Virus record (IMG/VR): IMGVR_UViG_3300029812_000136
Origin: an uncultured virus (IMG/VR IMGVR_UViG_3300029812_000136)
Taxonomy: Duplodnaviria > Heunggongvirae > Uroviricota > Caudoviricetes
DNA length: 64,000 nucleotides
Reading direction: 5' to 3' (one strand)
Below, piece after piece: positions 3,817-64,000 of the stretch. The notes beneath the pieces were generated by a model. It did no database searches and was not told the origin of the DNA. It saw only the letters and a list, made by a program, of their open reading frames with translations. Within the stretch, counting starts at the first letter, position 1, and every line of letters starts with the position of its first letter. Position numbers and translations under genes: made by a program.

Positions 3817-4351
3817 TCCAAAAATGATAAATAAAGAAGTCAGAATTGATTGGAAAGATAAGACAGCAAGACCAAAAGTTGAATCGGTTATGTTAGATCC
3901 AAATGCATATTATTTCAAACGAGAATATAATGATGGGTGTATTCTTGCTTTTTATTCTCATGGAAGTTGGGGTGGAGTTTGTGACAGATTTAGAGGATGG
4001 GTTATTATAAAGATAATAGATAAAAGTAATGGTAAAGTTGTTTCTGTTTATGAGTTGGACTCTTTAGAGAGGAAGACATATAGGGAGTGGTTATCTGAAC
4101 AAAAGAAGTTGCACAAAGGATATAAGCAAACTTTCAAGTATAGTGATGGTCAGGATTTGTGGAAGATGAATGAGTGATTTTCTATCAAACAAGTCGAACC
4201 AACAACTCATCAAAAATGCATCTAAACGAGATGACTTCCAGATTACTATGAGTTGTTGCGATATATTGTTTGGTGAGTCTTGTAACCATAAAGTATTTAT
4301 AAAGGAGAAAAACCGAAAGTTTCATATATCTTGAGTTTTTAATGTGAGTTT

Positions 4352-4858
4352 ATGACACAAAAAGATGAGATGTGGGGTAGGGTAGGTTTCAAGATATACG
4401 AATTAGAGGTGATGAGACAGTGTCTTGATTATCTTGAGGGGATTGAGATGGCTCTCAATCGTATAAATCGTACTCTCGTAAGTCTCGATGATATCAAAAA
4501 TATGCAAACAAGGTTGGCTGATGTTTTGATTGAGTGGAATCTGAGAAATCCATCTGCGTTGAACAGAACAAAGAGTCTTATTCTGACAGTCACGGAATGG
4601 ATAGTCCTTCAGAATGGTTTATGTCTTACTATTGGTCTGTCGTTAGACGAGGTTGGTAAAGTTTTAAAGTCGAGAGAGGAGTTTATGAAGGTTGTCAAAC
4701 ATTTACACAGAAGGTTTGAGTTGTTCCCTGTCAGAATTGCTGCTGGACTCAAAGCAAGTGGATACAAACTTAATGAGGGAGAAGTGGAGCGGTTGAAGAG
4801 AGATTATAGAACACATGATTCTGAGATTGCTATAACAATGTTGGTGAAGGAAAGTTGA
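4352..4858 (+). CDS. Hypothetical protein
   Basis: 168-aa ORF downstream of a CCGAAAG-N-CATATAT promoter-like site (about 4313-4329). Confidence 0.55.
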   Translation: MTQKDEMWGRVGFKIYELEVMRQCLDYLEGIEMALNRINRTLVSLDDIKNMQTRLADVLIEWNLRNPSALNRTKSLILTVTEWIVLQNGLCLTIGLSLDEVGKVLKSREEFMKVVKHLHRRFELFPVRIAAGLKASGYKLNEGEVERLKRDYRTHDSEIAITMLVKES

Positions 4859-5139: not shown

Positions 5140-5757
5140 ATGGGTGAAAAAATAGGTTATGCAAGGACATCCAAGAAAGATGAAAATATTGAGACACAAT
5201 TATTGAAACTGATAGAAAGTGGTATAGAAAGAGAAAAAATATTTTATGATGAAACTGTAAGTGGAATAGTTCCAGCAGAACAAAGAGAAGGATTTGGTAA
5301 ATTATTAGAATATACTAATGAAAATGAAGTATCAGGGATATATGTTTTTGAGTTATCAAGAATAGGACGAAATTTTGTTGAAACATTACAAACAATACGT
5401 AAATTAGAAGAAAGGAATATAATGATAATGTCTGTAAGTCCAAAGGAATCATGGTTATCTGTTACTGATAAAAGTATACGTGATTTAATTATGAGTATTT
5501 TTTCGTGGGTAGCAGAAAGAGAACGAGAAAATTTAGTTGAGAGAACTAAAGCTGGAATTGATAGAGCACGAAAAGAAGGTAAGCAGATTGGTCGTCCTGA
5601 AAGAAATATAGATTGGAAGGTGTTTGATAAGTGGTATAAAAAGGGGATTCCAATTAAGAGTATATCAAAAATCATGGAAATTCCATATCCAACTCTTTAT
5701 GCTAAAGTTAAAGAAAGAAAAAATAATGAAAAACAGAGGAATGATGTGAATGAATAA
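5140..5757 (+). CDS. Serine recombinase (resolvase/invertase family) with C-terminal HTH
   Basis: IGYARTS catalytic Ser motif, DETVSG, VFELSRIGRN, AERERENLVERTKAGIDRARKEGKQIGRP. Confidence 0.92.
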   Translation: MGEKIGYARTSKKDENIETQLLKLIESGIEREKIFYDETVSGIVPAEQREGFGKLLEYTNENEVSGIYVFELSRIGRNFVETLQTIRKLEERNIMIMSVSPKESWLSVTDKSIRDLIMSIFSWVAERERENLVERTKAGIDRARKEGKQIGRPERNIDWKVFDKWYKKGIPIKSISKIMEIPYPTLYAKVKERKNNEKQRNDVNE

Positions 5758-6589
5758 ACAAACAATTATTGATGAAAAAGTAAACTTATGCAAGTGTGGT
5801 TGTGGCCAACTCACCAAACTAGGAAAAGTATATATTTATGGTCATAGTAGAAAAGATCTAACCAAACAAAACAACGAATCAGTTAAAAGTATGTCTGAAA
5901 AACTCTCAGGCAGAACCAAAGAAAACGATGAATCAGTTAGAAGACGAGCAGAAAAAATGTCAGGTCGCACAAAAGAAACTCATGAAGGAGTGAGAAGACA
6001 ATCCCAAAAAATGACAGGCAAAAATAGTCCAAATTACGGTAAGCCACCCTGGAATAAAGGTCTCACAAAATACACTGATCCCAGTATCAAGAAAATTAGT
6101 GATAATCACACAGATATGTCTGGAGAACTCAACCCAAATTACGGGAAAGTCTGCTGGAACAAAGGACTCACAAAGGAAACCAATAAAAGTCTAAAAAGCC
6201 AATCCGAAAAACTCTCAGGCAAAAACAATCCATATTATGGAGTACATCGTTATGGTGAAAATTCTCCTACTTGGCAAGGTGGCAAATCTTTTGAACCTTA
6301 TTGTTTCAAGTTTAATTTTAATTTCAAAGAACGTGTCCGTGAATTCTTCAATCGTAGATGTTACGTTTGTGGCAAAACAGAACAAGAAAATGGTAGGAGA
6401 TTGTGTGTTCATCATGTTGGTTATGATAAAGACGTCTGTTGCAATGACGTAAAACCTTTGTTTGTTTCTTTATGCAAGAATTGTCATTCTAAAACCCATG
6501 GTAACAGACAATACTGGCAACAATATTTCACTAATCGCATCATGACAGAATTCAACGGTAAATGCTTCTACTCAAAACAAGAGATGTAA
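5750..6589 (+). CDS. HNH homing endonuclease with NUMOD3-like repeats
   Basis: CKCGCG N-terminus, repeated WNKGLTKET/GKNNPYYG units, C-terminal CYVC...LCVHH...LCKNCHSKTH. Confidence 0.88.
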   Translation: MNKQTIIDEKVNLCKCGCGQLTKLGKVYIYGHSRKDLTKQNNESVKSMSEKLSGRTKENDESVRRRAEKMSGRTKETHEGVRRQSQKMTGKNSPNYGKPPWNKGLTKYTDPSIKKISDNHTDMSGELNPNYGKVCWNKGLTKETNKSLKSQSEKLSGKNNPYYGVHRYGENSPTWQGGKSFEPYCFKFNFNFKERVREFFNRRCYVCGKTEQENGRRLCVHHVGYDKDVCCNDVKPLFVSLCKNCHSKTHGNRQYWQQYFTNRIMTEFNGKCFYSKQEM

Positions 6590-6618
6590 GGAATCAAAAA
6601 AGAAACAGAAAATGATAA

Positions 6619-8676
<2,058 letters not shown>

Positions 8677-8677
<1 letters not shown>

Positions 8678-16453: not shown

Positions 16454-19128
16454 TTGAAGTACCAACCGAAACGTACGAAGAAGAGGAGGAAGAATGTCTT
16501 GAATATTCATCCAATCCTCTCTACGATAATTTCATGATAGAAGGAAAATTCAAAAAGAACAAATTTCTCGGTATAAATCTAATCAAGAAATTATACATAA
16601 ATAATGAAGAAATAACATAGGTGAACAAATAAAAATGGTAAGTAAAGAAACTATAACTCAAACTGAAGAAGACATCAACAACATTCCACGAATAAAAGTA
16701 GAAAGTAGTTTCATAAAGGAAATCATAATCAATAAACAATTGATAGCAAGAGGTGACTTGAAAGGTAACCCACCCATCTATACAGTAAAAATATCAATCA
16801 TGGATGATATTGGTGGAAGACACAAAGTTACGACTATTGAAGGTTTTGTAAAAGACAAATTAGAGGTGAGAATATAAAATGAAAGGAATCAGAACTTCTT
16901 GTATAACAGGAAAAGAGGAGGAAGTCGAACTCGATTATGTCATAGAAGATGGTGGTGTCAGTAAAGTTTTTAGAATCCTCAATGGACCAACAGGTTATGA
17001 AAGCTTTTGTGTAGAGGATGGTAAAAAGTTTGGCATAACAGAAAGGGGTTGGAATGCATGTGTAGGAACTAAAGGTGTGTGGGATAGTTTGTTCATCTCT
17101 CCAGAAGAGATGAGGAAAGTATTTAGAGATGAGGATATAGAATGAAATGTAAAGTTGGAGAAGAAGCGGGTATTGATGAAGATGCTACATACATGTGTCC
17201 GAGATGTGGTAGAGGATATTGTGATATTTGTGCGCAGAATATGGAGTATCAATGTGATTGTTTAGTATCGCATCAAATGGTGAGAATATAGAATGAAAAC
17301 AAATGGCAAATTGATAATATTAGTGTGGTGGATTTTGTTTTTTATTGTGTCAATATCTCTGGCTTATATTTGTTTTTCTTCATATGTATTAGGAGAAAAT
17401 ATATATTATAAATGTCATACTGTTCTCTTGATTTTACTTGTGTGTTTGGTAATTGTTTCTTGGATAGGAATGTTTGTGAAAAGAGCAGAAATGAATGATA
17501 ATTTAAATAAAGAATATTCTTCGTTGTATAATTCATTAGATAGTCTTGAGGAGCATTTAAAAGACTACGAAAAGATAGATAGATCAGAACAACAAACGGA
17601 GAATTTAAGAGATCAACAAAAATGAATAACAATGGAATTCATATTGTTCAATAATTAGAGATGGTTAAGGAGTGAAAATGGGAGTGAAAAATAAAATGAA
17701 TCTTGAAGATGTTAGTTTAGTAATATTGATATTAGCTGTACTTGGTTTTGGTGCTATTTGTGTTTTAGATTTTGGTCTAATACCAATAGGAGAAGAAAAA
17801 CAAATATCAGGATACACTATAGATGTTGACTACATATCAGGTGGAATTGGACAAAATTCAATGACGATCGTCACTTTCGATAAAGGAGAAGTAATCATAT
17901 TTAGAGGTATAGAAGAGATACCAGAAAAACAACATATCTCTATTATTTACAAGGATACACTTTATAAGTCCAAGCAATTCATTTCTTGTGAGGTGATACA
18001 ATAATATGACACCTATAGAAATTGGAATTGTGTATATAATTGTTACCTTTCTTCTATTAATAGTATTGGCTGTATCATTAATGTATACTACTTTTTTTGT
18101 TTCTTGTGAATCGAGAAAATTACATGGTTTTATATGGTTTGTTTATATTTGTGCTATTATTTTGTTTGCTCTTTCTACAAATCAAGTATGTATTCAGGAT
18201 TGGCAAATAACTGATAACAAAATAGTAACAATCACTGATAAATGGACGGAACAAGGTGAATATTTCTTTTCAGATGAATCTAATAATATTTATCAGTTAT
18301 TAGAAAAAAGTACAGGACAAATAAAACGTCAAGAGACATCTGTTTATAGATATGATGAATTGGTTTTAGGAAACAAATATAATATAACAACAAATCAGTT
18401 TTTTACAAATCAAAGATGTCTCTATTCTATAAAAGAAGAGGTGTTATAAAAATGAAAACATTTCATTCAAAGGAAGAAGTAGAAAAAGAATACTTTCCAA
18501 CAGAGTATGCTGAAAAGCAATATATAATAGGATTCATCCCAAAAGGAAAAGAAAATGCAATTTCATACACAATGTTAGAAATAAAGGTAATTTTCTCACC
18601 TCATACTTTAAAAACAAGACACAACTTAAAAGATATTCTCAAGAAACTTTTAGATGATCACGAAATCTTTTCAGAGACAAGACGAGAAGAAATAATGAAG
18701 AATTGTATACTTGATAAAACATATTACTGGAAGTGAAAAACAAAAATGAAACCAAATGAGAAAGATAAATATGAAATATTCCAGAGAAGGATTAAGACAT
18801 ATAACAATGAAAATAACAGGTATACACACTATGTTGATTTGTGTGATGGAACAATAATGGTAATCATTTGGAACAGAAATTATTGGGATTATGAAATTTT
18901 TAATCTTGAGGTGGAGAAACGGAGAGATGGGAATTGAAGAGGAATATAATGATAAAGAATTAGAAAAAAGAATAAAGAAACAATTTAGTGAATTAGTGTC
19001 TAGTGGAGTAGGTTGGAATCCAGAATATTATGCAGATATATGTTCATATTCATTTGAATTAATACCTTGTTATGAGGAGTTAAAAAAGAGAGGTTACAAA
19101 GTTGAACTTAAAGTAAGGAGAGAGTAAC

Positions 19129-20070
19129 TTGTCAATACAAAAAAAGTACATCCCAAAAACATGGGATCAAATAATTGGTCAGGAAGAAATAGTTACACAA
19201 CTCAAAGAATATAAGTCAATCAGCGATATGCCTAATCTTGCTTTCATAGGTCGAGCAGGGATCGGAAAAACTGCATGTGCATATGTGCTTGCGAAGTCAT
19301 TAAACATTCCTATAGTCGAACTAAATGCAAGTGATGATCGTGGAATTGATGTTGTTCGTGGAACAATAAAAACGCTTCTTTTTACAGAAGGTGAACGAAT
19401 CATTCTTATGGACGAAATGGATGCATTAACGGGACCAGCTCAAGATGCACTAAAACGTTCAATGGAACGATCTCTTAATATGACAGGAAACAGATTAATC
19501 TTTACAATCAATCGAAGATGGAAAATCGTCGATCCAATTCTCTCTCGATGTACTATATTCTATTTCAATCCTCTAACAGACGAAAATATCAAAACTCTAT
19601 CTACCAGAATCTTCCGTGAGGAATCAATAAAATTCAATACAAAAGAGGATATAATCAAGTCTCTCGATATCATTTCCAAATCATCTCGAGGTGATGCAAG
19701 GAGAGCAATAAATATCATTGGTAAGATATTAAACACAGAACCAGATGACATCATTTCCATACTCAAACGTGAATCTGTAGAAATTGACTTCGCAGAAGAA
19801 ACATTTAATTATGCAGTCAAAGGTAATTGGGAAAAGTGTCTCAGATCCCTTGAGAACTTATTAGTCCAACAAAACATAGACGGTTCTGTAACTCTCGAGA
19901 TATTTTACAGGGGTTTAGAGAAGCTGGACATCGATCCAGTTCTAAAGTACCCACTCTATGAAAGATTAGCAGATGTTGAAAGGGCTCTCCAAATCCAATG
20001 CAATCCTCTCATCCAATTCTCATCGTTCTTAATGTCTGTAGTTGGTGTGACACATTATAAAGGTGAGTGA
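19129..20070 (+). CDS. rfcS: Replication factor C small subunit
   Basis: KKYIPKTWDQIIGQ, GRAGIGKT, ELNASDDRGIDVVR, DEMD, PILSRC, GDARRAIN. Confidence 0.92.
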   Translation: MSIQKKYIPKTWDQIIGQEEIVTQLKEYKSISDMPNLAFIGRAGIGKTACAYVLAKSLNIPIVELNASDDRGIDVVRGTIKTLLFTEGERIILMDEMDALTGPAQDALKRSMERSLNMTGNRLIFTINRRWKIVDPILSRCTIFYFNPLTDENIKTLSTRIFREESIKFNTKEDIIKSLDIISKSSRGDARRAINIIGKILNTEPDDIISILKRESVEIDFAEETFNYAVKGNWEKCLRSLENLLVQQNIDGSVTLEIFYRGLEKLDIDPVLKYPLYERLADVERALQIQCNPLIQFSSFLMSVVGVTHYKGE

Positions 20071-24800: not shown

Positions 24801-26107
24801 GAAAAACAATAAATCTTTATAAGTATGTAAGTATATTTAATAATAAAACCCAAAAAATGAAAGTCACAAGAACTGAGCAAATATGGCTAAAGGAAGACAG
24901 AACAATCGCTGAACTCTGTCACATCTCCAAGAACCTTTACAACGAAGCCAACTACATCATCCGCCAAGAGCTATTCAAGACGGGCAAGTGGATACGAGAC
25001 TTGAATAGACAATTAAAAGAAAGTGAAAACTATAGAGTCTTATCTGCACAAACTGCACAACAAGTACTACGAATTGTAGATAAAAATTGGAAGGGTTTCT
25101 TTGAGGCAACAAAAGAATGGAAAATACATCCAGAAAAGTTTTTTTCACGACCGCAAATACCTCATTACAAGAAAAAAGACGGTGAATTTCTGTTAGTATT
25201 TACGAATCAACAATCAAAACTAAAAGACGGATGGTTAATTATTCTACCAAAACTCTTAGGACTAAAAATAAAGACAAGAATTGAGAGTGGACTAAAACAA
25301 GTCCGAATAATTCCCAAGGGTGTAGGCTATGTACTTGAAATAGTATATGAGAAAGTTATAAAGGTTATAGAGCGAAACAAAGACAGAATAGTAGGAATTG
25401 ATATTGGAGTTCGCAATCTCATAACCATGGTAAACAACATCGGTGTGCAGCCGATTATTGTTAAGGGTGGAGTTGTGAAGAGTATCAATCAGTTCTATAA
25501 CAAAGAGAAAGCGAGAGTACAAAGCGTATATGACTTCCAGGGGATAAAGACAGGGAATAAGATGAGGAAGCTGTCGGTGAAACGTGAACGAAAACTAAAC
25601 GACTTCTTCCATAATGTCAGCAGTTTCGTAGTAAATTGGTGCGTAGAGCATGAGATAGGAACAATAGTGATAGGACACAATGACAACTGGAAGCAAAAAG
25701 TGGACATAGGTAGAAGAAATAACCAGACATTTGTGCAGATACCTTTCGATAAGCTAATCCGTCAGATAACTTACAAAGCAGAAGAGAAAGGGATAGAAGT
25801 AAGAAAGCAGGAAGAGAGTCACACAAGCAAGTGCTCTTTTTTGGATGGTGAATCGGTAGAGTATCACAAAGAATACATGGGTAGACGAAAGAGTAGAGGG
25901 ATATTCAAAACGGCGAATGGTTTAATAATAAACGCAGATGTAAATGCAGCTTACAACATAATCAAAAAAGCAGTCCTGAAAGCATTTGATAAATATGCGG
26001 ACAGGATAGAGGATGTAGCCTTACATCCATTACGTTATAATATAACGGATAAAGGAGGTAATAATAAATCTAATAGTATATTTTATTAGGTTTATTGTTT
26101 TTCATAA
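24801..26107 (+). mobile_element. tnpB-only insertion element (IS200/IS605 or IS607 related)
   Basis: Contains tnpB; 3' hairpin at about 26060-26099; ends inferred from restoring the interrupted ORF. Confidence 0.55.
24857..26089 (+). CDS. tnpB: TnpB RNA-guided nuclease
   Basis: KNLYNEANY, RuvC-I GIDIG, EESHTSKCS, INADVNAAYNI; the RuvC-II region reads IVIGHN. Confidence 0.92.
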   Translation: MKVTRTEQIWLKEDRTIAELCHISKNLYNEANYIIRQELFKTGKWIRDLNRQLKESENYRVLSAQTAQQVLRIVDKNWKGFFEATKEWKIHPEKFFSRPQIPHYKKKDGEFLLVFTNQQSKLKDGWLIILPKLLGLKIKTRIESGLKQVRIIPKGVGYVLEIVYEKVIKVIERNKDRIVGIDIGVRNLITMVNNIGVQPIIVKGGVVKSINQFYNKEKARVQSVYDFQGIKTGNKMRKLSVKRERKLNDFFHNVSSFVVNWCVEHEIGTIVIGHNDNWKQKVDIGRRNNQTFVQIPFDKLIRQITYKAEEKGIEVRKQEESHTSKCSFLDGESVEYHKEYMGRRKSRGIFKTANGLIINADVNAAYNIIKKAVLKAFDKYADRIEDVALHPLRYNITDKGGNNKSNSIFY

Positions 26108-45229: not shown

Positions 45230-46003
45230 ATGTCACAAATAAGTATCTTCTCATTTGGATTAGACAAGCCAGATTTCGATTATCTCTCTCGAACTGAATC
45301 TTTTGTTGCAAGAAACAAACACAACATTCCTTTTCAAGGTGAAATATCAGCGCAAATAATATCATATAATGATCTTCTCTTCTCACCAATACCTCAATTA
45401 AAGTGTATACAATGCGGATTCTACGGCAGAACATATTGGTGCAATCCTAAGTTACCAAGATACTATTCATGGAAAGACAAATTCAGTAAATACAATTTCT
45501 TCTTACTCATAAAAGGGAAGATAAATGTTGAGGATCGTTATAAGCAAGAATTAGAAGATTATAATATTGGTGAATGGAGAGCACGTTTTTATTCTGGAAA
45601 TGAGGGGACGAACATTTTAATGAAACGTGTTAAGGATCGTAGGATGGAAACAAGTAATTATTTGTCTTCTTTTATGAAAATAAGGTTTTTAGGAGAAGGT
45701 GGTGGTTGCAAAAAAGCTGTCTTACCTGAAACAAGAATAAGGACAATTTTAGATGAAAAGAAAGCTTTAGATGTTAGTATAGGAGATGTATTATATGGAT
45801 ATGATATACAACAAAATAATTTTACAGAAAATAGAGTAATAAACAAAATAAAAACAAAATCTAGTTACAAGATAAAAATAACAACTGAGAGTAATAAAGT
45901 ATTAGTGTTGACACCAGAACATCCTGTTTTCATAAACAACAAGTGGAAAAGAGCAGATGCTGTTTTTGTTGGTGATGAGTTATTAGTTTTATCAAATGAA
46001 TAA
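45230..46003 (+). CDS. DUF2284-like Cys-rich protein, N-extein plus split-intein N-half
   Basis: CIQCGFYGRTYWCNP, GGGCKK, then Hint block A AVLPETRI (45716), block B LTPEHPVF, W.RA..V..GD. Confidence 0.85.
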   Translation: MSQISIFSFGLDKPDFDYLSRTESFVARNKHNIPFQGEISAQIISYNDLLFSPIPQLKCIQCGFYGRTYWCNPKLPRYYSWKDKFSKYNFFLLIKGKINVEDRYKQELEDYNIGEWRARFYSGNEGTNILMKRVKDRRMETSNYLSSFMKIRFLGEGGGCKKAVLPETRIRTILDEKKALDVSIGDVLYGYDIQQNNFTENRVINKIKTKSSYKIKITTESNKVLVLTPEHPVFINNKWKRADAVFVGDELLVLSNE

Positions 46004-46934
46004 AATAGAATCAATCCAATCATCTCTTTTTGATGTTGAGAATAGTGAAACAGATGAGTTTATTATGTGTAAGATTTGTAGAAGAGTGTTTATTGGTTCA
46101 TTACTTGTTCATTTACATAAATATCATAAAATAACGTCTGAAGAGTATATGCATATATTTCCAGGTTCAAGATTGTATACTAAAAAATTTTTATTACATC
46201 AAAAATATGCATTTGATTGTTTAATGAAGAAGGATCCTGATCATCAGAAAAAGGCATTTGCAAAACTTCTTGAGAAGAATCCAAATCATCAATGTGAAGT
46301 AGGTAAGATTGGTGGGCACAACTCTCAAGAAACACTAAAGAGAGAAAATAAAGGATTTTATGGAATGAGTTTTGAATTTCATCAAGAGATAGGAAGAAAG
46401 AATGGTATTGCTTCTCAAAAAATCCATAAAGAAAAAGGTACTGGTTTTTATGATGTAGAAGTAAAAAGGAAGGGAGGAAAAGCAACATATAAAAAGTATG
46501 GTGTAGAGTATTATAGGGAACTTGGTAAAAAGGCTCATCAAACAAATTTGAAGCGAGGTTTTAGTGTAGGAAAAGTTAGAGTTCAACAAATGATTAATGA
46601 AACACCTTACAAATATGAAGGAAAGAAGTTCCTCTCAAAAGAAGAACTAAAGTGTTATAAAATCATAAGACAAATATTTAAATCAGAAGAAATAATAGTA
46701 AATGGTTTTATAGGAAATAAAAGTGTTGATTTTCATATTCTTCTTATTTCATTATTTATAGAATATCATCCTTATACATTGTCTCAAGGTTTGAGTACTT
46801 CGTTAGAGACAAAAGAAGAATATTATCAACGTCGCCGTAAATTACTTGATGATAGTGAATATAAAGAGCATAAATTAATTGTTTTCTCTAATCTAAAGGA
46901 GGTAAAAGAGTGGATACAATCTTTGAAAAAATAA
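45996..46934 (+). CDS. Free-standing homing endonuclease (Zn finger plus Vsr/DUF559-like domain)
   Basis: CKIC..HLHKYH, basic GG repeats, SKEE..VDF..IEYHP. Confidence 0.7.
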   Translation: MNKIESIQSSLFDVENSETDEFIMCKICRRVFIGSLLVHLHKYHKITSEEYMHIFPGSRLYTKKFLLHQKYAFDCLMKKDPDHQKKAFAKLLEKNPNHQCEVGKIGGHNSQETLKRENKGFYGMSFEFHQEIGRKNGIASQKIHKEKGTGFYDVEVKRKGGKATYKKYGVEYYRELGKKAHQTNLKRGFSVGKVRVQQMINETPYKYEGKKFLSKEELKCYKIIRQIFKSEEIIVNGFIGNKSVDFHILLISLFIEYHPYTLSQGLSTSLETKEEYYQRRRKLLDDSEYKEHKLIVFSNLKEVKEWIQSLKK

Positions 46935-47680
46935 AGAAAATAGAAATAATAAAGGAAGATACAGACTGTTTTGATATAGAAGTTTCAGGAACACACAACT
47001 TTTTTGCTGATGATGTATTAGTTCATAATTGTAAGATTTGTAATATTAATAATAAAGAACCTTGTAAGCATCCTGATGAATCATTCTGTTCACCAGAAGG
47101 ATGTGGTATAGATCTCTATAACATGCTCCCAGAAATGGAAATACCACCAGTCAAAAATTTTCATGTCATTTCTATGGTTTATGGTTCACTAAATTTCGAT
47201 TTCAACTCTCAAATTCTTTCTCCTCGTAAACAAAATCATTTTCCTTTAACAAATATCTCTAACCTCAAAAAAACTTTCTCTGTTAAGGATATTTGGGATC
47301 CTGATTACGCAAATTCTCGATGTAATAACTGTAAATTGTATTCACCACTCCTCTGTGATAGATCTCGTTATCAAGAACAAGATCTCTACAATCACATCAA
47401 AGATTGGCATCTCTATTCCATCAATCTCAAACACAAAGTCAACACAGTCAAAGCAATAAAAGAACTCCATAATCATCAACTTCAACTTCATCGTCAAGGT
47501 TATTGGGAAAGTTTTGTCCTTCTCCCTGGTAGATGTCCTGCATGTCAGGTTTGTAATATTGATGTTCATAAAAATGGTGGATACAAGGTGGTTCAAAATA
47601 GAGCCATTCCTCTATGTCTAAGTTATTTCAATCTCAAACCAGATGATATTGGTGAGAATGTGGGTTATATTTTGGTATAA
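46910..47680 (+). CDS. Split-intein C-half plus DUF2284-like C-extein
   Basis: Own SD (AGGAGGT) and GTG start; FDIEVSGTHNFFADDVLVHN|C; CKHP..SPEGCGIDLY. Confidence 0.88.
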   Translation: MDTIFEKIKKIEIIKEDTDCFDIEVSGTHNFFADDVLVHNCKICNINNKEPCKHPDESFCSPEGCGIDLYNMLPEMEIPPVKNFHVISMVYGSLNFDFNSQILSPRKQNHFPLTNISNLKKTFSVKDIWDPDYANSRCNNCKLYSPLLCDRSRYQEQDLYNHIKDWHLYSINLKHKVNTVKAIKELHNHQLQLHRQGYWESFVLLPGRCPACQVCNIDVHKNGGYKVVQNRAIPLCLSYFNLKPDDIGENVGYILV

Positions 47681-49279: not shown

Positions 49280-50633
49280 AAGAAACTCCGAGAAGACTTC
49301 CTGCATTAGATAGGGGATGAATTGGCTCCCGATTTAGTAATGGTGATGTGGTAGGGTGTATCGAGAGCAGATAACTCTCTTCTACCACACCACCAATAAA
49401 ACAATTTATATACTAAACATAAATAAATTATTGGTGTATCGAGATGCAAAGAACATATCGCTATCGGATATATCCCTCGGCGGAACAGGAAGAAGAGTTA
49501 AGCTATTGGTTAGATACATGCCGTTGGCTCTACAACCAATCGTTGAACGAAAGAAGAGTTGCTTACGACTATGCCAAGGCACGATTGAACTACTATGATC
49601 AGGCAAATGCGTTAAAGATGATGAAGAAAGATAATAAGTGGTTACAGAAGGTACATTCGCAGGTGCTTCAGGATGTGCTTAAACGATTAGATAAGGCATT
49701 CCAGAACTTTTTTCGACGAGTGAAAGCATGTGAGAAGCTAGGATATCCTCGTTTCAAAGGAAGAAGCAGATACGACTCTTTTACATTTCCACAAAGCGGC
49801 TATAAGATAGAAAACGGCAAGTTAGTTCTATCGAAAATAGGTGCTATCAAGTTGAAGCAGCACCGGGAGATGCCGGAAGGAGCTAAAATCAAGACATGCA
49901 CAATAAAATGGGATGTGGATCAGTGGTATGTGACTTTTGTCGTAGAGTTGTCGGATGCCGGAAGAGAGAAGAAAGAGATTGCGACCTCAGTAGGGGTTGA
50001 CGTTGGATTGAATGAGATAGCAACACTTAGTAGCGGTGAAAAGATAGCAAACCCACGATGGTTCAGAACAACTGAGAAGAAGTTAGCGAAGGAACAAAGA
50101 AAACTATCGAGGAAGAAGAAAGGCTCTGCGAATAGGAAGAAGCAGAAGATAGAAGTGGCTAAAGTATATAGAACGATACGAAATCAACGGAAAGACTTCC
50201 ATCATAAACTCAGCCGAGAACTTGTGGAACGGTACGATTTGATAGTATTCGAGGATTTGAAGGTTAGGAATATGTTAAAGAATTACTATTTAGCGAAATC
50301 AATATCAGATGCCGGTTGGAACGTGCTGGTTAATTTCACGAGCTACAAAGCGGAAGATGCTGGTGGATTTGTGGAACAAGTCATTCCAAACGGTACTTCG
50401 CAATTGTGCAGTGGTTGTGGAGCGGAAGTAAAGAAATCGTTAGCGGTGAGGACGCATAAATGTTCAGAGTGTGGTCTGGTGATGGATAGGGATGAGAATG
50501 CTGCATTGAATATCCTCAGAAGGGGATTAGAGAAGATAGGGCAGGAACTGTCCAAATCAATAACGCCTGTGGAGATGTTCGTTGGAATGTCACCGAAGCA
50601 GGAAGCTACTCAACTTGTTGGGTGTTAGTTCAC
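49280..50633 (+). mobile_element. IS605-group (IS1341-type) tnpB-only element
   Basis: Left-end hairpin (about 49298-49317), higher-GC tnpB, right-end hairpin ending TAGTTCAC; follows TTAT. Confidence 0.8.
49444..50628 (+). CDS. tnpB: TnpB RNA-guided nuclease
   Basis: YRYRIYP HTH_OrfB start, GVDVG, VFEDL, TSQLCSGCG..CSECG..DRDENAALNI. Confidence 0.95.
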   Translation: MQRTYRYRIYPSAEQEEELSYWLDTCRWLYNQSLNERRVAYDYAKARLNYYDQANALKMMKKDNKWLQKVHSQVLQDVLKRLDKAFQNFFRRVKACEKLGYPRFKGRSRYDSFTFPQSGYKIENGKLVLSKIGAIKLKQHREMPEGAKIKTCTIKWDVDQWYVTFVVELSDAGREKKEIATSVGVDVGLNEIATLSSGEKIANPRWFRTTEKKLAKEQRKLSRKKKGSANRKKQKIEVAKVYRTIRNQRKDFHHKLSRELVERYDLIVFEDLKVRNMLKNYYLAKSISDAGWNVLVNFTSYKAEDAGGFVEQVIPNGTSQLCSGCGAEVKKSLAVRTHKCSECGLVMDRDENAALNILRRGLEKIGQELSKSITPVEMFVGMSPKQEATQLVGC

Positions 50634-58974: not shown

Positions 58975-59307
58975 TTGACCAGAAAAGGTTATTTTGCTGA
59001 ATACTTAGCCAAACAAAAACTCATTGAAGAATATGGTGACTCAAACATAATCAAAATTGCTATATCGCAACAAGGAGCAGATCTTCTTTGTTTGAGAGGT
59101 AGGGAGATAGTCAAACTCGTTGAAGTCAAATCCACTAAAGGAAAGAAGTGGTATCCTGTTAGACCAAAAGATATTATTCAATTTAATAAAATAATTGATT
59201 TTGCATCAGAAAAGGAAATTGTTGTTGAATTCTGGATAAAAACAGGTGGTTCAACAGAGTTTGAAATTTTGAGTGAAACAGAGTTTAAGGAGAGGTATAG
59301 TTTATGA
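58975..59307 (+). CDS. hjc: Hjc-like Holliday junction resolvase
   Basis: RKGYFAE, GADLL, LVEVKST. Confidence 0.8.
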   Translation: MTRKGYFAEYLAKQKLIEEYGDSNIIKIAISQQGADLLCLRGREIVKLVEVKSTKGKKWYPVRPKDIIQFNKIIDFASEKEIVVEFWIKTGGSTEFEILSETEFKERYSL

Positions 59308-59537
59308 TAATAAAATCATGGAAATGGAGATATAGATTATTTAATGAATTACCAAAAGTATGTCCATATTGTAATGGTGAAGTTATAGAGAGAGGTTTTG
59401 AAGGTGTTAATTGGAGAGTTGAATGTAGAAGTTGTGAAAGAGTGTTAATAGAGTGATAAAAAAGTATATGAATATTAGTTGAAAAATAGAAATTTTCACC
59501 AAATATAGTAGTTTTTGATGCAAATATTGTGTTTTCA

Positions 59538-59592
59538 CCGCAAACCTATTTATATACATATATAAATATATATAAATTGTAAGAGGAGGTGA
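59538..59592 (+). promoter_or_regulatory. BRE-TATA promoter and SD of the intron-containing gene
   Basis: CCGCAAA 59538-59544, TTTATATA 59549-59556, GGAGGTGA 59585-59592. Confidence 0.7.
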
Positions 59593-59597
59593 AAACA

Positions 59598-60046
59598 ATG
59601 GACATAAGAAAATTTCTCAAAGACACCAAAGCTCAGATGGGAATGAGTCTGACTGATGTAGGTTTGGCTATAGGTATACTTGCCGTGATAGGTTTCGTCA
59701 TACTCTACAGCACCAAGAGGAGTTAGTCCAAGTAAATGTATAATGATAAAAAACAACTTACTCAGGTGTGGAGCAATATGTAACGAAGTCTATAGCATCG
59801 CAGCCATCTCGTCAGGTAGCATCTTCTATACAGGTGTTCAAAAGGTCACCAAATGGAGAAGAGGTTTAGAAAGTTTATTTTTTAAAATAAAGAATATAGC
59901 ATCTCTTAAATTGGTTTTAAACGCTCCTCCAGGTGCAAATCGTGAATACCGGTTACGGGATGTTGCTGATCGCTGTCCTCGCCATGCTGACAGGTTTTAT
60001 AATTTATTACCTCAGAGGTGCAACGGGTGGAGGCGGAACCATATAG
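59598..60046 (+). CDS. Three-exon pilin-like or spindle-virus major-capsid-like protein, join(59598..59708, 59776..59852, 59938..60046), 98 aa
   Basis: Spliced product MDIRKFLKDTKAQMGMSLTDVGLAIGILAVIGFVILY-ICNEVYSIAAISSGSIFYTGVQKVTK-IVNTGYGMLLIAVLAMLTGFIIYYLRGATGGGGTI; class III signal peptide (KA/QM) and two hydrophobic helices. Confidence 0.85.
59709..59775 (+). other. BHB intron 1 (67 nt)
   Basis: Exon helix CATA/TATG, central helix CTCT/GGAG, bulges ACA and CAA, intron helix GCACC/GGTGT. Confidence 0.82.
59853..59937 (+). other. BHB intron 2 (85 nt)
   Basis: Exon helix GGT/ATC, central helix CACC/GGTG, bulges AAA and CAA, intron helix TGGAG/CTCCA extended by GTTTAGAA/TTTTAAAC. Confidence 0.85.
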
Positions 60047-60067
60047 GGAACGAAGACCTGAGAGGGA

Positions 60068-60096
60068 AGGGACGAAGTGTCCCTCTTTTTTCTTTT
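60068..60096 (+). terminator. Hairpin plus T-tract terminator
   Basis: AGGGAC-GAAGT-GTCCCT followed by TTTTTTCTTTT just after the spliced gene. Confidence 0.7.
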
Positions 60097-60107
60097 CCTA
60101 TAGAGAC

Positions 60108-60575
60108 ATGAGTAAAACGACCATATCCGTTGTGGTTTTGATCACACTTTTGGTGCTTTCGTTATCAGTCATTTCGGTGAATGCATTATTTCCAAATCCA
60201 ATCAATGCTACTGGAAATCTAAGCTATGTAAAAGCTGTTAATTTTACATACGTCGCAAATCAGTCTGTAGGAGGGAATGCAGTTAAGACAGTCGCTTTCA
60301 ATGTATCAATCAAAACTTTAGGCATTTGGCAGAATCGAACATTGGCAGACAATTATACATACATTCATACAAGTAATCCAAACCCATCAACTTTCAATAT
60401 TGAAGTCTGGGCATGGAATGCAACAGGGAGTGGTAATTTGTCTAATAGCTCAGTAAATATGTCAGCTACAACTTTACAAGCAAAACGATCAGCACCATCA
60501 ATGACACCAATATCAATAGTCGTAGCACTGGCTTTGTGGTCAATAATCCTTGCAAAAGTGAAGAGGAGAAAATAA
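60108..60575 (+). CDS. Secreted N-glycoprotein with a VPXXXP-CTERM-like anchor
   Basis: Signal peptide from ATG 60108; about 11 N-x-S/T sequons; APSMTP, then a TM helix and KVKRRK. Confidence 0.75.
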   Translation: MSKTTISVVVLITLLVLSLSVISVNALFPNPINATGNLSYVKAVNFTYVANQSVGGNAVKTVAFNVSIKTLGIWQNRTLADNYTYIHTSNPNPSTFNIEVWAWNATGSGNLSNSSVNMSATTLQAKRSAPSMTPISIVVALALWSIILAKVKRRK

Positions 60576-63191: not shown

Positions 63192-64000
63192 TATAATAAA
63201 ATATATTTTATTTAAAATGGTGCATAAAAAGAATAATAATGGAGGCATAAAACACGACAAAAGAATCTAAAAAGTGTTCTGTTGAGTGGCAGGAGTTCAG
63301 AAAAGGAATTTTGAAGATGCACCCATCACCAAACAAACTGCTTTATAAGGATATTGCTACAGGAAAAGTAGTTAAATACATATATCATCATTCCTGGGCA
63401 AGGGAAGGATGGGAACGGAGTAAACTCGTAAAATCTGATCATGATATTATAAAAAAGGCGGACAAGATGTATTTGGGTAGTAAGTGAAAATATGTTGAGA
63501 AAAAAGCGATTGTTGAATAATTACAAAAGAGCAGCAGAGAAAATCTAATAGTAATATTGTGAATTAAAAGGTGTATGAATAATGAAATTCTTCAAAATAC
63601 GAATAGGAAATAGACAAAATCTCCTCGAATACTTATCCTTAGCCAAAAAGCGAGGTATCAAATTCAGATGGAATCAAATCCATCAAAGATACGAAGCACG
63701 AAAACGTATCTATGGCAACAAAAGTATTGATATCCGTATCAAAAATTATTCAGGGTATTGGCGATTACATATGCATGTGGATATAATAGTCTGTGATGTA
63801 GTCCAGCAAGTGCACAAAATCTGGAAGAACAAAACTGAGACCAACAAAATTGGTCAAAAATACCTTGAATTCAAAAATTTTAAGCATTATGAATAAATGT
63901 TGTGCATCCTGCAAATTGGTCTTGTCTATCACCTCTTTCTCGATAATAGACATCTATTCACCCAAGCAGAAAGATGTATAACTAAAGGACTTAAAAAGAT

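Follow-up and report, generated by a model that had tools for sequence, protein, structure and literature searches.

How can a single protein be encoded by three pieces of DNA that lie in three different reading frames? This question is raised by positions 59598–60046 of a 64,000-nucleotide stretch (hereafter the window) from an uncultured virus, IMG/VR record IMGVR_UViG_3300029812_000136. For this locus, an initial annotation made from the letters alone had proposed a hidden gene split by two bulge-helix-bulge (BHB) introns of the transfer RNA (tRNA) type. The computational follow-up reported here established that two BHB motifs are present and stable in predicted folds to the degree given below, that the standard cut rule restores one reading frame across the three pieces, and that the first two pieces are colinear within one metagenomic protein, P0001. 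We consider it somewhat probable that both introns are spliced out by the host enzymes EndA and RtcB, leaving as circles and giving a 98-residue protein. Cleavage and ligation, the membership of the third piece in the protein and the action of the host enzymes are what we infer.

Two bulge-helix-bulge motifs and the frame they restore

The archaeal splicing motif is described in a passage of PMC7714728 as a four-base-pair helix flanked by two three-nucleotide bulges. Two sites on the plus strand of the locus contain this core, with the bulges on opposite strands. In the first (BHB1, 59694–59787), the central helix H pairs CTCT (59703–59706) with GGAG (59770–59773), the bulges are ACA (59707–59709) and CAA (59774–59776), and helix h' pairs GCACC (59710–59714) with GGTGT (59765–59769). 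Its helix h pairs TTCGT-CATA (59694–59702) with TATG-(TA)-ACGAA (59777–59787), CATA/TATG being extended by TTCGT/ACGAA across a 2-nucleotide bulge. In the second motif (BHB2, 59844–59941), H pairs CACC (59847–59850) with GGTG (59932–59935), the bulges are AAA (59851–59853) and CAA (59936–59938), and h' pairs TGGAG (59854–59858) with CTCCA (59927–59931); h consists of three base pairs, one of them G-U, between GGT (59844–59846) and ATC (59939–59941). The order of the elements, h-H-bulge-h'...h'-H-bulge-h, is in both cases that of the archaeal splicing motif. When all positions and bulges were re-read, both motifs were found exactly where the initial annotation had placed them.

Folding of the 541 nucleotides from 59560 to 60100 with RNAfold gave a minimum free energy structure that contains BHB1 exactly and, for BHB2, the helix H, the first bulge and h'. 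For BHB1, which prevails in the predicted ensemble, the pair probabilities were 0.78–0.92 in h (4+5 base pairs), 0.82–0.84 in H and 0.47–0.75 in h' (5 base pairs). For BHB2, they reached 0.97–0.99 in H and h' and 0.14 in h, where a competing pair, G59845-C59936, had a probability of 0.33. Both motifs had been called canonical. The term fits BHB1, which has the strict outer helices h and h', as well as H, the bulges and h' of BHB2, but not the weak outer helix h of BHB2.

The cut rule applied here, after the second base of each bulge, follows from the canonical 37/38 position of tRNA introns. By this rule, 59709–59775 (67 nucleotides) and 59853–59937 (85 nucleotides) are removed, each length being 1 mod 3. 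The excision joins frames 0, 1 and 2 into a single open reading frame (ORF) of 98 codons, which extends from an ATG preceded by a Shine-Dalgarno (SD) sequence to a stop located 21 nucleotides before the terminator stem. Both excisions, the clean 98-residue frame and the stop of exon 1 alone at 59724–59726 are thus confirmed as first described. Taking 59709–59937 as one intron was rejected: it yields an Arg-rich frame, and the half-motifs do not pair.

All segments lie on the plus strand. Exon 1 (59598–59708) provides 37 codons with the N-terminus and a first hydrophobic segment, and is supported by its codon score and by the start that it shares with P0001; read on without excision, its frame comprises 42 codons and ends at TAG 59724–59726 within intron 1 (59709–59775). 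Exon 2 (59776–59852; 77 nucleotides, that is 25 codons plus 2 nucleotides) is supported by the P0001 match in the claimed frame and by its third-position C. Its frame is open from about 59690 to TGA 60109–60111, and the first ATG in it, at 59743, opens an ORF of 122 residues. Intron 2 (59853–59937) carries a T6 run at 59878–59883 that adjoins an AT hairpin. Exon 3 (59938–60046), assigned from hydropathy, consists of 1 nucleotide, 35 codons and the stop TAG 60044–60046, in a frame open from 59921, and encodes a second hydrophobic segment and a Gly-rich tail. In the joined product, hydrophobic stretches span approximately residues 16–48 and 64–89 of 98.

Third-position C and GC content differ between the exons and the introns. 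The fraction of codons with C in third position, of which the median was 0.117 in the 71 window ORFs of at least 100 residues, was 0.24, 0.44 and 0.31 in the claimed frames of exons 1, 2 and 3, and in every exon the two other frames were lower (0.20 and 0.12 for exon 3). Read in the exon-2 frame, introns 1 and 2 gave 0.14 and 0.04. The GC content was 41% in exon 1, 37% in intron 1, 43% in exon 2, 31% in intron 2 and 49% in exon 3. For exon 1, the codon log-odds were +14.3 in the claimed frame versus -55 and -12.7 in the others. At junction 2, the support consists of frame, hydropathy and codon bias; in addition, exon 3 bears a weak likeness to the hydrophobic segment of exon 1 (BLASTP E 0.49), with a score that 121 of 5000 shuffles reached.

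The expression signals are arranged around the three pieces together. Upstream of exon 1 lies an intergenic spacer of 141 nucleotides (59457–59597; 22% GC), within which an AT-rich, promoter-like stretch at 59549–59577 includes TTTATATA (59549–59556), a putative TATA box. The SD sequence GGAGGTGA (59585–59592) stands 5 nucleotides upstream of the ATG at 59598–59600; in its full 8-nucleotide form it precedes 4 of the 96 putative genes of the window, exon 1 included, versus 0.2% of random positions. An SD sequence is present neither before the ATG of the 122-residue ORF nor before a GTG ahead of exon 3, as is also the case for 40 of the 96 putative genes. Downstream, a computed scan detected a terminator-like hairpin (60068–60084) followed by T6 and T4 runs (60068–60096 in all), which is the sole such site in 59300–60300, the shuffle mean being 0.6. 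Of the promoter, SD and terminator that had been said to bracket three frames, the SD, the frames and the terminator-like hairpin were recovered, and the promoter is deduced from the AT-rich stretch.

Taken together, the following scheme can be proposed. One transcript would extend from the AT-rich region at about 59550–59580 to the T-rich terminator at about 60085–60096 and would carry a gene whose 98-residue product has two hydrophobic segments and whose coding sequence is broken by two archaeal BHB introns. Host EndA would recognise each four-base-pair helix with its two three-nucleotide bulges and cut past the second bulge base, after which host RtcB would ligate the three exons in their order. 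The introns of 67 and 85 nucleotides would be released, probably in circular form. The full protein would arise only from the doubly spliced messenger RNA (mRNA), and the unspliced mRNA would give a 42-residue peptide. On the evidence of the sequence, the host tRNA-splicing enzymes probably must mend the message of this three-piece, three-frame gene, an arrangement that would be unusual.

A partly colinear homologue

When exon 1 alone (37 residues) was searched with HMMER against 1.84 billion representative proteins at E ≤ 1e-3, a single match was obtained: P0001, an 88-residue protein with E 7.6e-4, which forms a singleton cluster from an ENA metagenome and is encoded on a 2827-bp contig. P0001 begins at the same Met and is identical to exon 1 at 24 of 35 residues (pairwise E 3e-13). 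Exon 2 formed no part of the query, yet in the claimed frame it is matched by residues 53–69 of P0001, with 11 of 17 residues identical and 15 of 17 similar (pairwise E 6e-7). In a MAFFT alignment, the last residue of exon 1 falls on Y52 of P0001 and the first residue of exon 2 on I53, so that ILY|ICNE in the window corresponds to the contiguous IIYIVNE. In the window, the two exons are set apart by a stop, 67 nucleotides and a change of frame. Since P0001 holds both colinearly, the frame of exon 2 is coding and belongs with exon 1 in one protein. The ORF of P0001 stops 8 codons past the position that matches the end of exon 2; this early end is consistent with a second interruption there and proves nothing.

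Colinearity with a homologue had been named as a check of the proposal. It was found for exons 1 and 2, in a protein that carries an insert of its own, and for exon 3 a protein search with a 41-residue stretch returned no homologue. Exon 1 had no match among longer proteins, and P0001 as query retrieved itself only. In viral contigs, three neighbouring proteins led to no relatives, and neither P0001 nor the P0001/exon-1 alignment gave a true match. Against 50,697 phage and archaeal-virus records, tblastn returned nothing for P0001 and only two matches with E=3 for exon 3, and searches of a plasmid collection and of the ESM Atlas with the exon pieces and P0001 gave nothing usable. Several candidate loci were discarded. 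The sole locus of the metagenome scan (L001) lies inside a 595-residue bacterial ORF and is a false positive; of the two loci from the genome scan, one (L002) proved false by translation and the other (L003) carries the 26-residue pattern match already seen in L001. Two conserved peptides were also turned into degenerate DNA patterns, which led to two unrelated loci (L004 and L005), another scan giving 0 matches.

Within the window itself, a 110-residue ORF at 17672–18004 has an N-terminal hydrophobic segment, LEDVSLVILILAVLGF, that resembles the one of exon 1 (12 of 18 residues identical; local tblastn E 0.02), and this likeness may reflect a distant paralogue acting as a membrane anchor.

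Chance occurrence and competing explanations

The frequency at which such motifs arise was estimated by scanning both strands for BHB shapes with an H of 4 base pairs, 3-nucleotide bulges, h and h' of at least 3 base pairs and inserts of up to about 200 nucleotides, with nearest-neighbour core energies. The window contains 1102 candidates on the plus strand and 987 on the minus strand. The top five on the plus strand are 4193/4259 (-17.3), 63909/63966 (-14.9), 19915/19942 (-13.8), BHB1 (-10.0) and BHB2 (-9.9 kcal/mol), and the best on the minus strand (-8.9 kcal/mol) is weaker than both BHB1 and BHB2. Five motifs on the coding strand versus zero on the other represent a mild excess (Poisson P ~0.01). 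For two of the top five to lie 144 nucleotides apart, both restoring the frame, within one SD-preceded ATG and terminator, we estimate from the rates, with no simulation, a chance of <1e-3 per window.

Two of these motifs lie at non-coding positions. The strongest in the window (4185–4273; -17.3 kcal/mol; h and h' of 8 base pairs each; excisable segment 4199–4264, 66 nucleotides) begins 8 nucleotides past the stop of the ORF 3824–4177 and ahead of a gene at 4352; its excision joins no sizeable ORFs, and it may be a circular-RNA or processing cassette. The second-strongest (63901–63980; -14.9; excisable segment 63915–63971, 57 nucleotides) has the same placement just after a stop codon, a few bases past the end of the ORF 63582–63896. 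A weak BHB-shaped candidate (-6.0) was also noted at 26013/26196, across the 3' end of the TnpB gene 24857–26089.

Several observations weigh against a gene with two spliced introns. Fourteen dinucleotide shuffles gave 2, 1, 2, 1, 0, 1, 1, 0, 1, 2, 3, 0, 1 and 3 candidates at or below -9.9 kcal/mol (18 in total, mean 1.29 per strand), and 4 in total at or below -13 kcal/mol; with about 1.3 expected per strand, one BHB motif of this strength is unremarkable. The joining of open frames (30 and 25 codons or longer) is not rare either: among candidates at or below -3 kcal/mol, it was seen for 4 of 69 on the plus strand and 6 of 64 on the minus strand. The -13.8 motif (19911–19954), located in an RFC-like gene, would excise 19921–19947, 27 nucleotides in frame. 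The nine codons within this fold align without gaps to the solved archaeal RFC small subunits 1iqp and 2chq, and for this reason it is almost certainly no intron; it is a caution on calling introns from the motif alone. At the locus itself, BHB2 comes close to the relaxed HBh' form because its h has a pair probability of only 0.14, and this form is perhaps not cut by some types of EndA. The codon log-odds are flat across frames in exons 2 and 3, and intron 2 looks coding-like in the exon-2 frame (+15.2). Moreover, the T6 run of intron 2 may end archaeal transcription early, before exon 3.

P0001 adds to this side as well. Between GFV and IIY, 3 codons upstream of the intron site in the window, it has an in-frame 14-residue insert, ESLKLPLKAIWRCG, whose end, RCG, is also the 3' end of intron 1 in the exon-2 frame (LLRCGA), and a P.K.I pattern is common to both. 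With this insert present, P0001 does not tell where exactly the junction lies: when 426 alternative in-frame joins were scored against it, the BHB junction came about 34th, within a few units of the best, and models that retain RCGA scored slightly higher. The insert breaks the hydrophobic segment with charged residues and is therefore read here as a related, in-frame, stop-free intron, 9 nucleotides away, that a gene caller would have translated; a translated linker is the alternative.

Could the locus then be expressed without any splicing? It might be a decayed, frameshifted copy, or be read by ribosomal +1 frameshifting near AGT-TAG at 59721–59726, the BHB folds being coincidental. What keeps this explanation alive is the open exon-2 frame, the RCG common to P0001 and the non-intron BHB in the RFC-like gene. 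With that frame open from about 59690, one +1 shift would suffice to connect exons 1 and 2, the linker so translated has P.K.I and RCG in common with the P0001 insert, and an SD-like AGGAG, which recalls the RF2 frameshift site, directly precedes the TAG; BHBs of this strength also arise by chance. However, exon 3 would require a second, independent shift, and a slippery sequence is present at neither site. By our estimate, a BHB at or below -9.9 would enclose a given break and put the frame right with a probability of ~7e-4 per site, and this coincidence would be needed twice. The full SD, start, terminator and exon-specific codon bias are retained, unlike in a decaying gene. This rival, decay or recoding with no splicing, appears unlikely to us. 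The case in which only intron 1 is real, BHB2 being a chance or otherwise functional hairpin and the product ending in or after exon 2 or at the T6 run inside intron 2, appears quite unlikely. It agrees with the homologue support, which covers exons 1 and 2 and was not found for exon 3, with the weak h of BHB2, with the T6 run at 59878–59883 and with the fact that P0001 is a complete ORF without the second hydrophobic segment. But H and h' of BHB2 have pair probabilities of at least 0.97, and its cuts lead exactly to the frame with a clean hydrophobic segment and a stop 21 nucleotides before the terminator. That frame also has the high third-position C of exon 3 (0.31) and the weak likeness to exon 1 described above, whereas with intron 2 retained the exon-2 frame would cross the terminator to 60111.

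The three pieces could, finally, be independent small ORFs, namely the 42-residue peptide, the 122-residue ORF 59743–60111 and a 37-residue ORF, with the BHBs acting as processing or circular-RNA cassettes devoid of coding effect. Strong BHBs do occur at non-coding positions (4185–4273 and 63901–63980), 40 of the 96 putative genes do without an SD, and the end of the 122-residue ORF overlaps the following start, at 60108, in an ATGA. Nevertheless, P0001 contains exons 1 and 2 in a single ORF, and its similarity ends at the boundaries of exon 2 and does not extend along the 122-residue ORF. The latter stays open through intron 2 and exon 3, reads through the terminator hairpin and has an Arg-rich C-terminal half, as an off-frame hydrophobic gene would give; it is probably an off-frame artefact, but could still yield another product if intron 1 were the only one removed. 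We regard this explanation as very unlikely. For the tRNA-type introns themselves, the anatomy, the cut rule and the presence of exons 1 and 2 in one protein (P0001) support the original proposal in silico, while exon 3 and the second junction are without comparative support.

A broader proposal can be built on the splicing of both introns, and we give it slightly less than an even chance. The most strongly signalled small membrane (possibly virion) protein of an archaeal element would need the host to remove two frame-shifting BHB introns; the introns themselves would be mobile, shifting within the gene; and EndA would be used more widely by the element, for example for circular RNAs. Mobility within the gene is suggested by the P0001 insert, which sits 9 nucleotides away and whose end resembles that of intron 1. 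A wider use of EndA is suggested by the two other strong BHB cassettes, each placed shortly past a stop codon.

The element and its place among known systems

The gene product had been called a probable major structural protein. This was not supported: in Pfam, PHROGs and NCBIfam, no family was matched beyond noise at E ≤ 10 by the exon pieces (exon 2 in part in a non-claimed frame) or by P0001. That the element makes it in abundance as a small membrane protein, which could be part of the virion or envelope, is a guess that we consider doubtful; it draws on the expression signals and on the protein of the adjacent gene (60108–60575), whose N-terminus is signal-like and which has many N-x-S/T sequons and a C-terminal anchor. 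The sequence of this neighbour would suit a membrane or envelope module, and it is from this that a structural role is proposed.

The window has 33% GC and essentially all of its genes on the plus strand. For replication and repair, it encodes a family B DNA polymerase, the RFC-like clamp loader, a sliding-clamp-like protein, an AEP primase, a Cas4-like nuclease and an ERCC4 nuclease, and a DUF3987 protein has a weak PHROGs DNA-primase match. A thymidylate synthase fragment, two radical-SAM/SPASM proteins and several glycosyltransferases represent metabolism and modification; the other genes include a phage metallopeptidase, two TnpB, a serine recombinase and an Rpo1C (RNA polymerase A'')-like protein. 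The ORFs were scanned for families in Pfam (134 ORFs of at least 50 residues) and PHROGs (31 larger ORFs). Among these, no capsid, portal or terminase family was matched, and for this reason we go no further than the term "archaeal virus-like mobile element"; the status of virus assumed at the outset is not established. EndA and RtcB families were not seen among the scanned ORFs either, and Rfam and tRNA scans of the window gave 0 matches.

Concerning the host, the Rpo1C-like protein (6619–7557; 313 residues versus approximately 390 in cellular A'') matches solved archaeal Rpo1C chains with E 6e-59; upstream of its gene lie the serine recombinase (5140–5757) and an HNH/NUMOD3 endonuclease-like ORF (5750–6589), and the whole region 5140–8677 resembles a mobile element. 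We take the best solved matches of Rpo1C and RFC to be Thermococcales and Archaeoglobus entries, the top Rpo1C entry being presumably from Pyrococcus. The TnpB (IS200/IS605 OrfB) genes are located at 24857–26089 and 49444–50628, and the best plasmid match of the second is on a Methanomethylovorans hollandica plasmid (50% identity). This similarity is a weak hint of a methanogen host, and the hints from Rpo1C and RFC are likewise weak.

A further interrupted gene was observed in the window. In a DUF2284 gene with an intein, the N-part ends the ORF 45230–46000 and the C-part begins the ORF 46910–47677, in the same frame, and a 312-residue ORF in another frame (45996–46931) lies between them. The layout of 45230–47677 resembles that of a split intein or "fractured gene" into which a free-standing gene was inserted. 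A long BHB intron was sought for this three-frame region and none was found, the best energy being 0.0.

If the proposed splicing is true, it would be the first mRNA with several BHB introns and also the first case from a mobile element. Archaeal gene finders would then miss real genes, for the callable ORFs here, of 42, 122 and 37 residues, would none of them be the true product. Archaeal viruses or plasmids could rely on host RNA-repair enzymes for expression, BHB introns might spread and move in mobile-element genes, which bears on intron gain, and the locus would offer a compact natural substrate of about 500 nucleotides for studying the specificity of EndA on mRNA.

No BHB intron was found described in a viral or plasmid protein-coding gene in the full-text literature, subscription-only papers aside. 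The initial annotation had known of no viral example, and as regards BHB introns this stands; putative, unproven 12-bp introns in an archaeal virus are nonetheless mentioned in a passage of PMC2738675 that cites Peng et al. Both cases concern short inserts in viral protein genes that were proposed as introns and whose splicing is undemonstrated. The inserts of Peng et al. are, however, 12 bp long, in frame and presented in the citing passage with no mention of BHB, whereas those described here are 67 and 85 nucleotides long, have BHB geometry and would have to be removed for the protein to be made.

The major capsid proteins of spindle-shaped archaeal viruses have, like the predicted product, about 70–100 residues and two hydrophobic segments, a trait common to many small membrane proteins and not specific; similarity to capsid families in sequence or profile was not detected for the exon pieces and P0001 in the family and tblastn searches given above. 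Closer in RNA architecture are the multi-intron archaeal pre-tRNAs, which, together with BHB introns at non-canonical positions, were reportedly treated by Marck and Grosjean in 2003. They share with this locus several independent BHB introns per short transcript and the same cut rule, but here the substrate would be an mRNA, and the exons carry codons instead of tRNA structure.

Among mRNAs, EndA processes a BHB in the 5' untranslated region (UTR) of Haloferax volcanii HVO_1309 (Schwarz 2020, PMC7714728). As that account presents it, this is an action of EndA outside tRNA and ribosomal RNA, in a euryarchaeon, and the BHB lies in an untranslated leader and joins no coding exons, in contrast with the motifs described here. 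According to the same passage, cbf5 is, besides this 5'-UTR case, the only mRNA intron of the type reported, so that protein-coding BHB introns are known experimentally from essentially one cellular gene. The cbf5 pre-mRNA is spliced in Crenarchaeota, with gain and loss of the intron (Yokobori 2009, PMC2738675); as covered there, a coding message carries a tRNA-type intron, needs host EndA and an RNA ligase, and varies by lineage in the presence and boundaries of the intron. The gene described here resembles cbf5 in this respect. It differs in that it belongs to a virus-like mobile element and not to a cellular housekeeping locus, in that it has two introns, each frame-shifting, and in that its product would be a small membrane protein of no known family, the splicing being predicted from sequence. 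The BHB intron of the cbf5 pre-mRNA was reportedly described by Watanabe in 2002, and the present gene would be a new variant of this cbf5-type archaeal mRNA intron.

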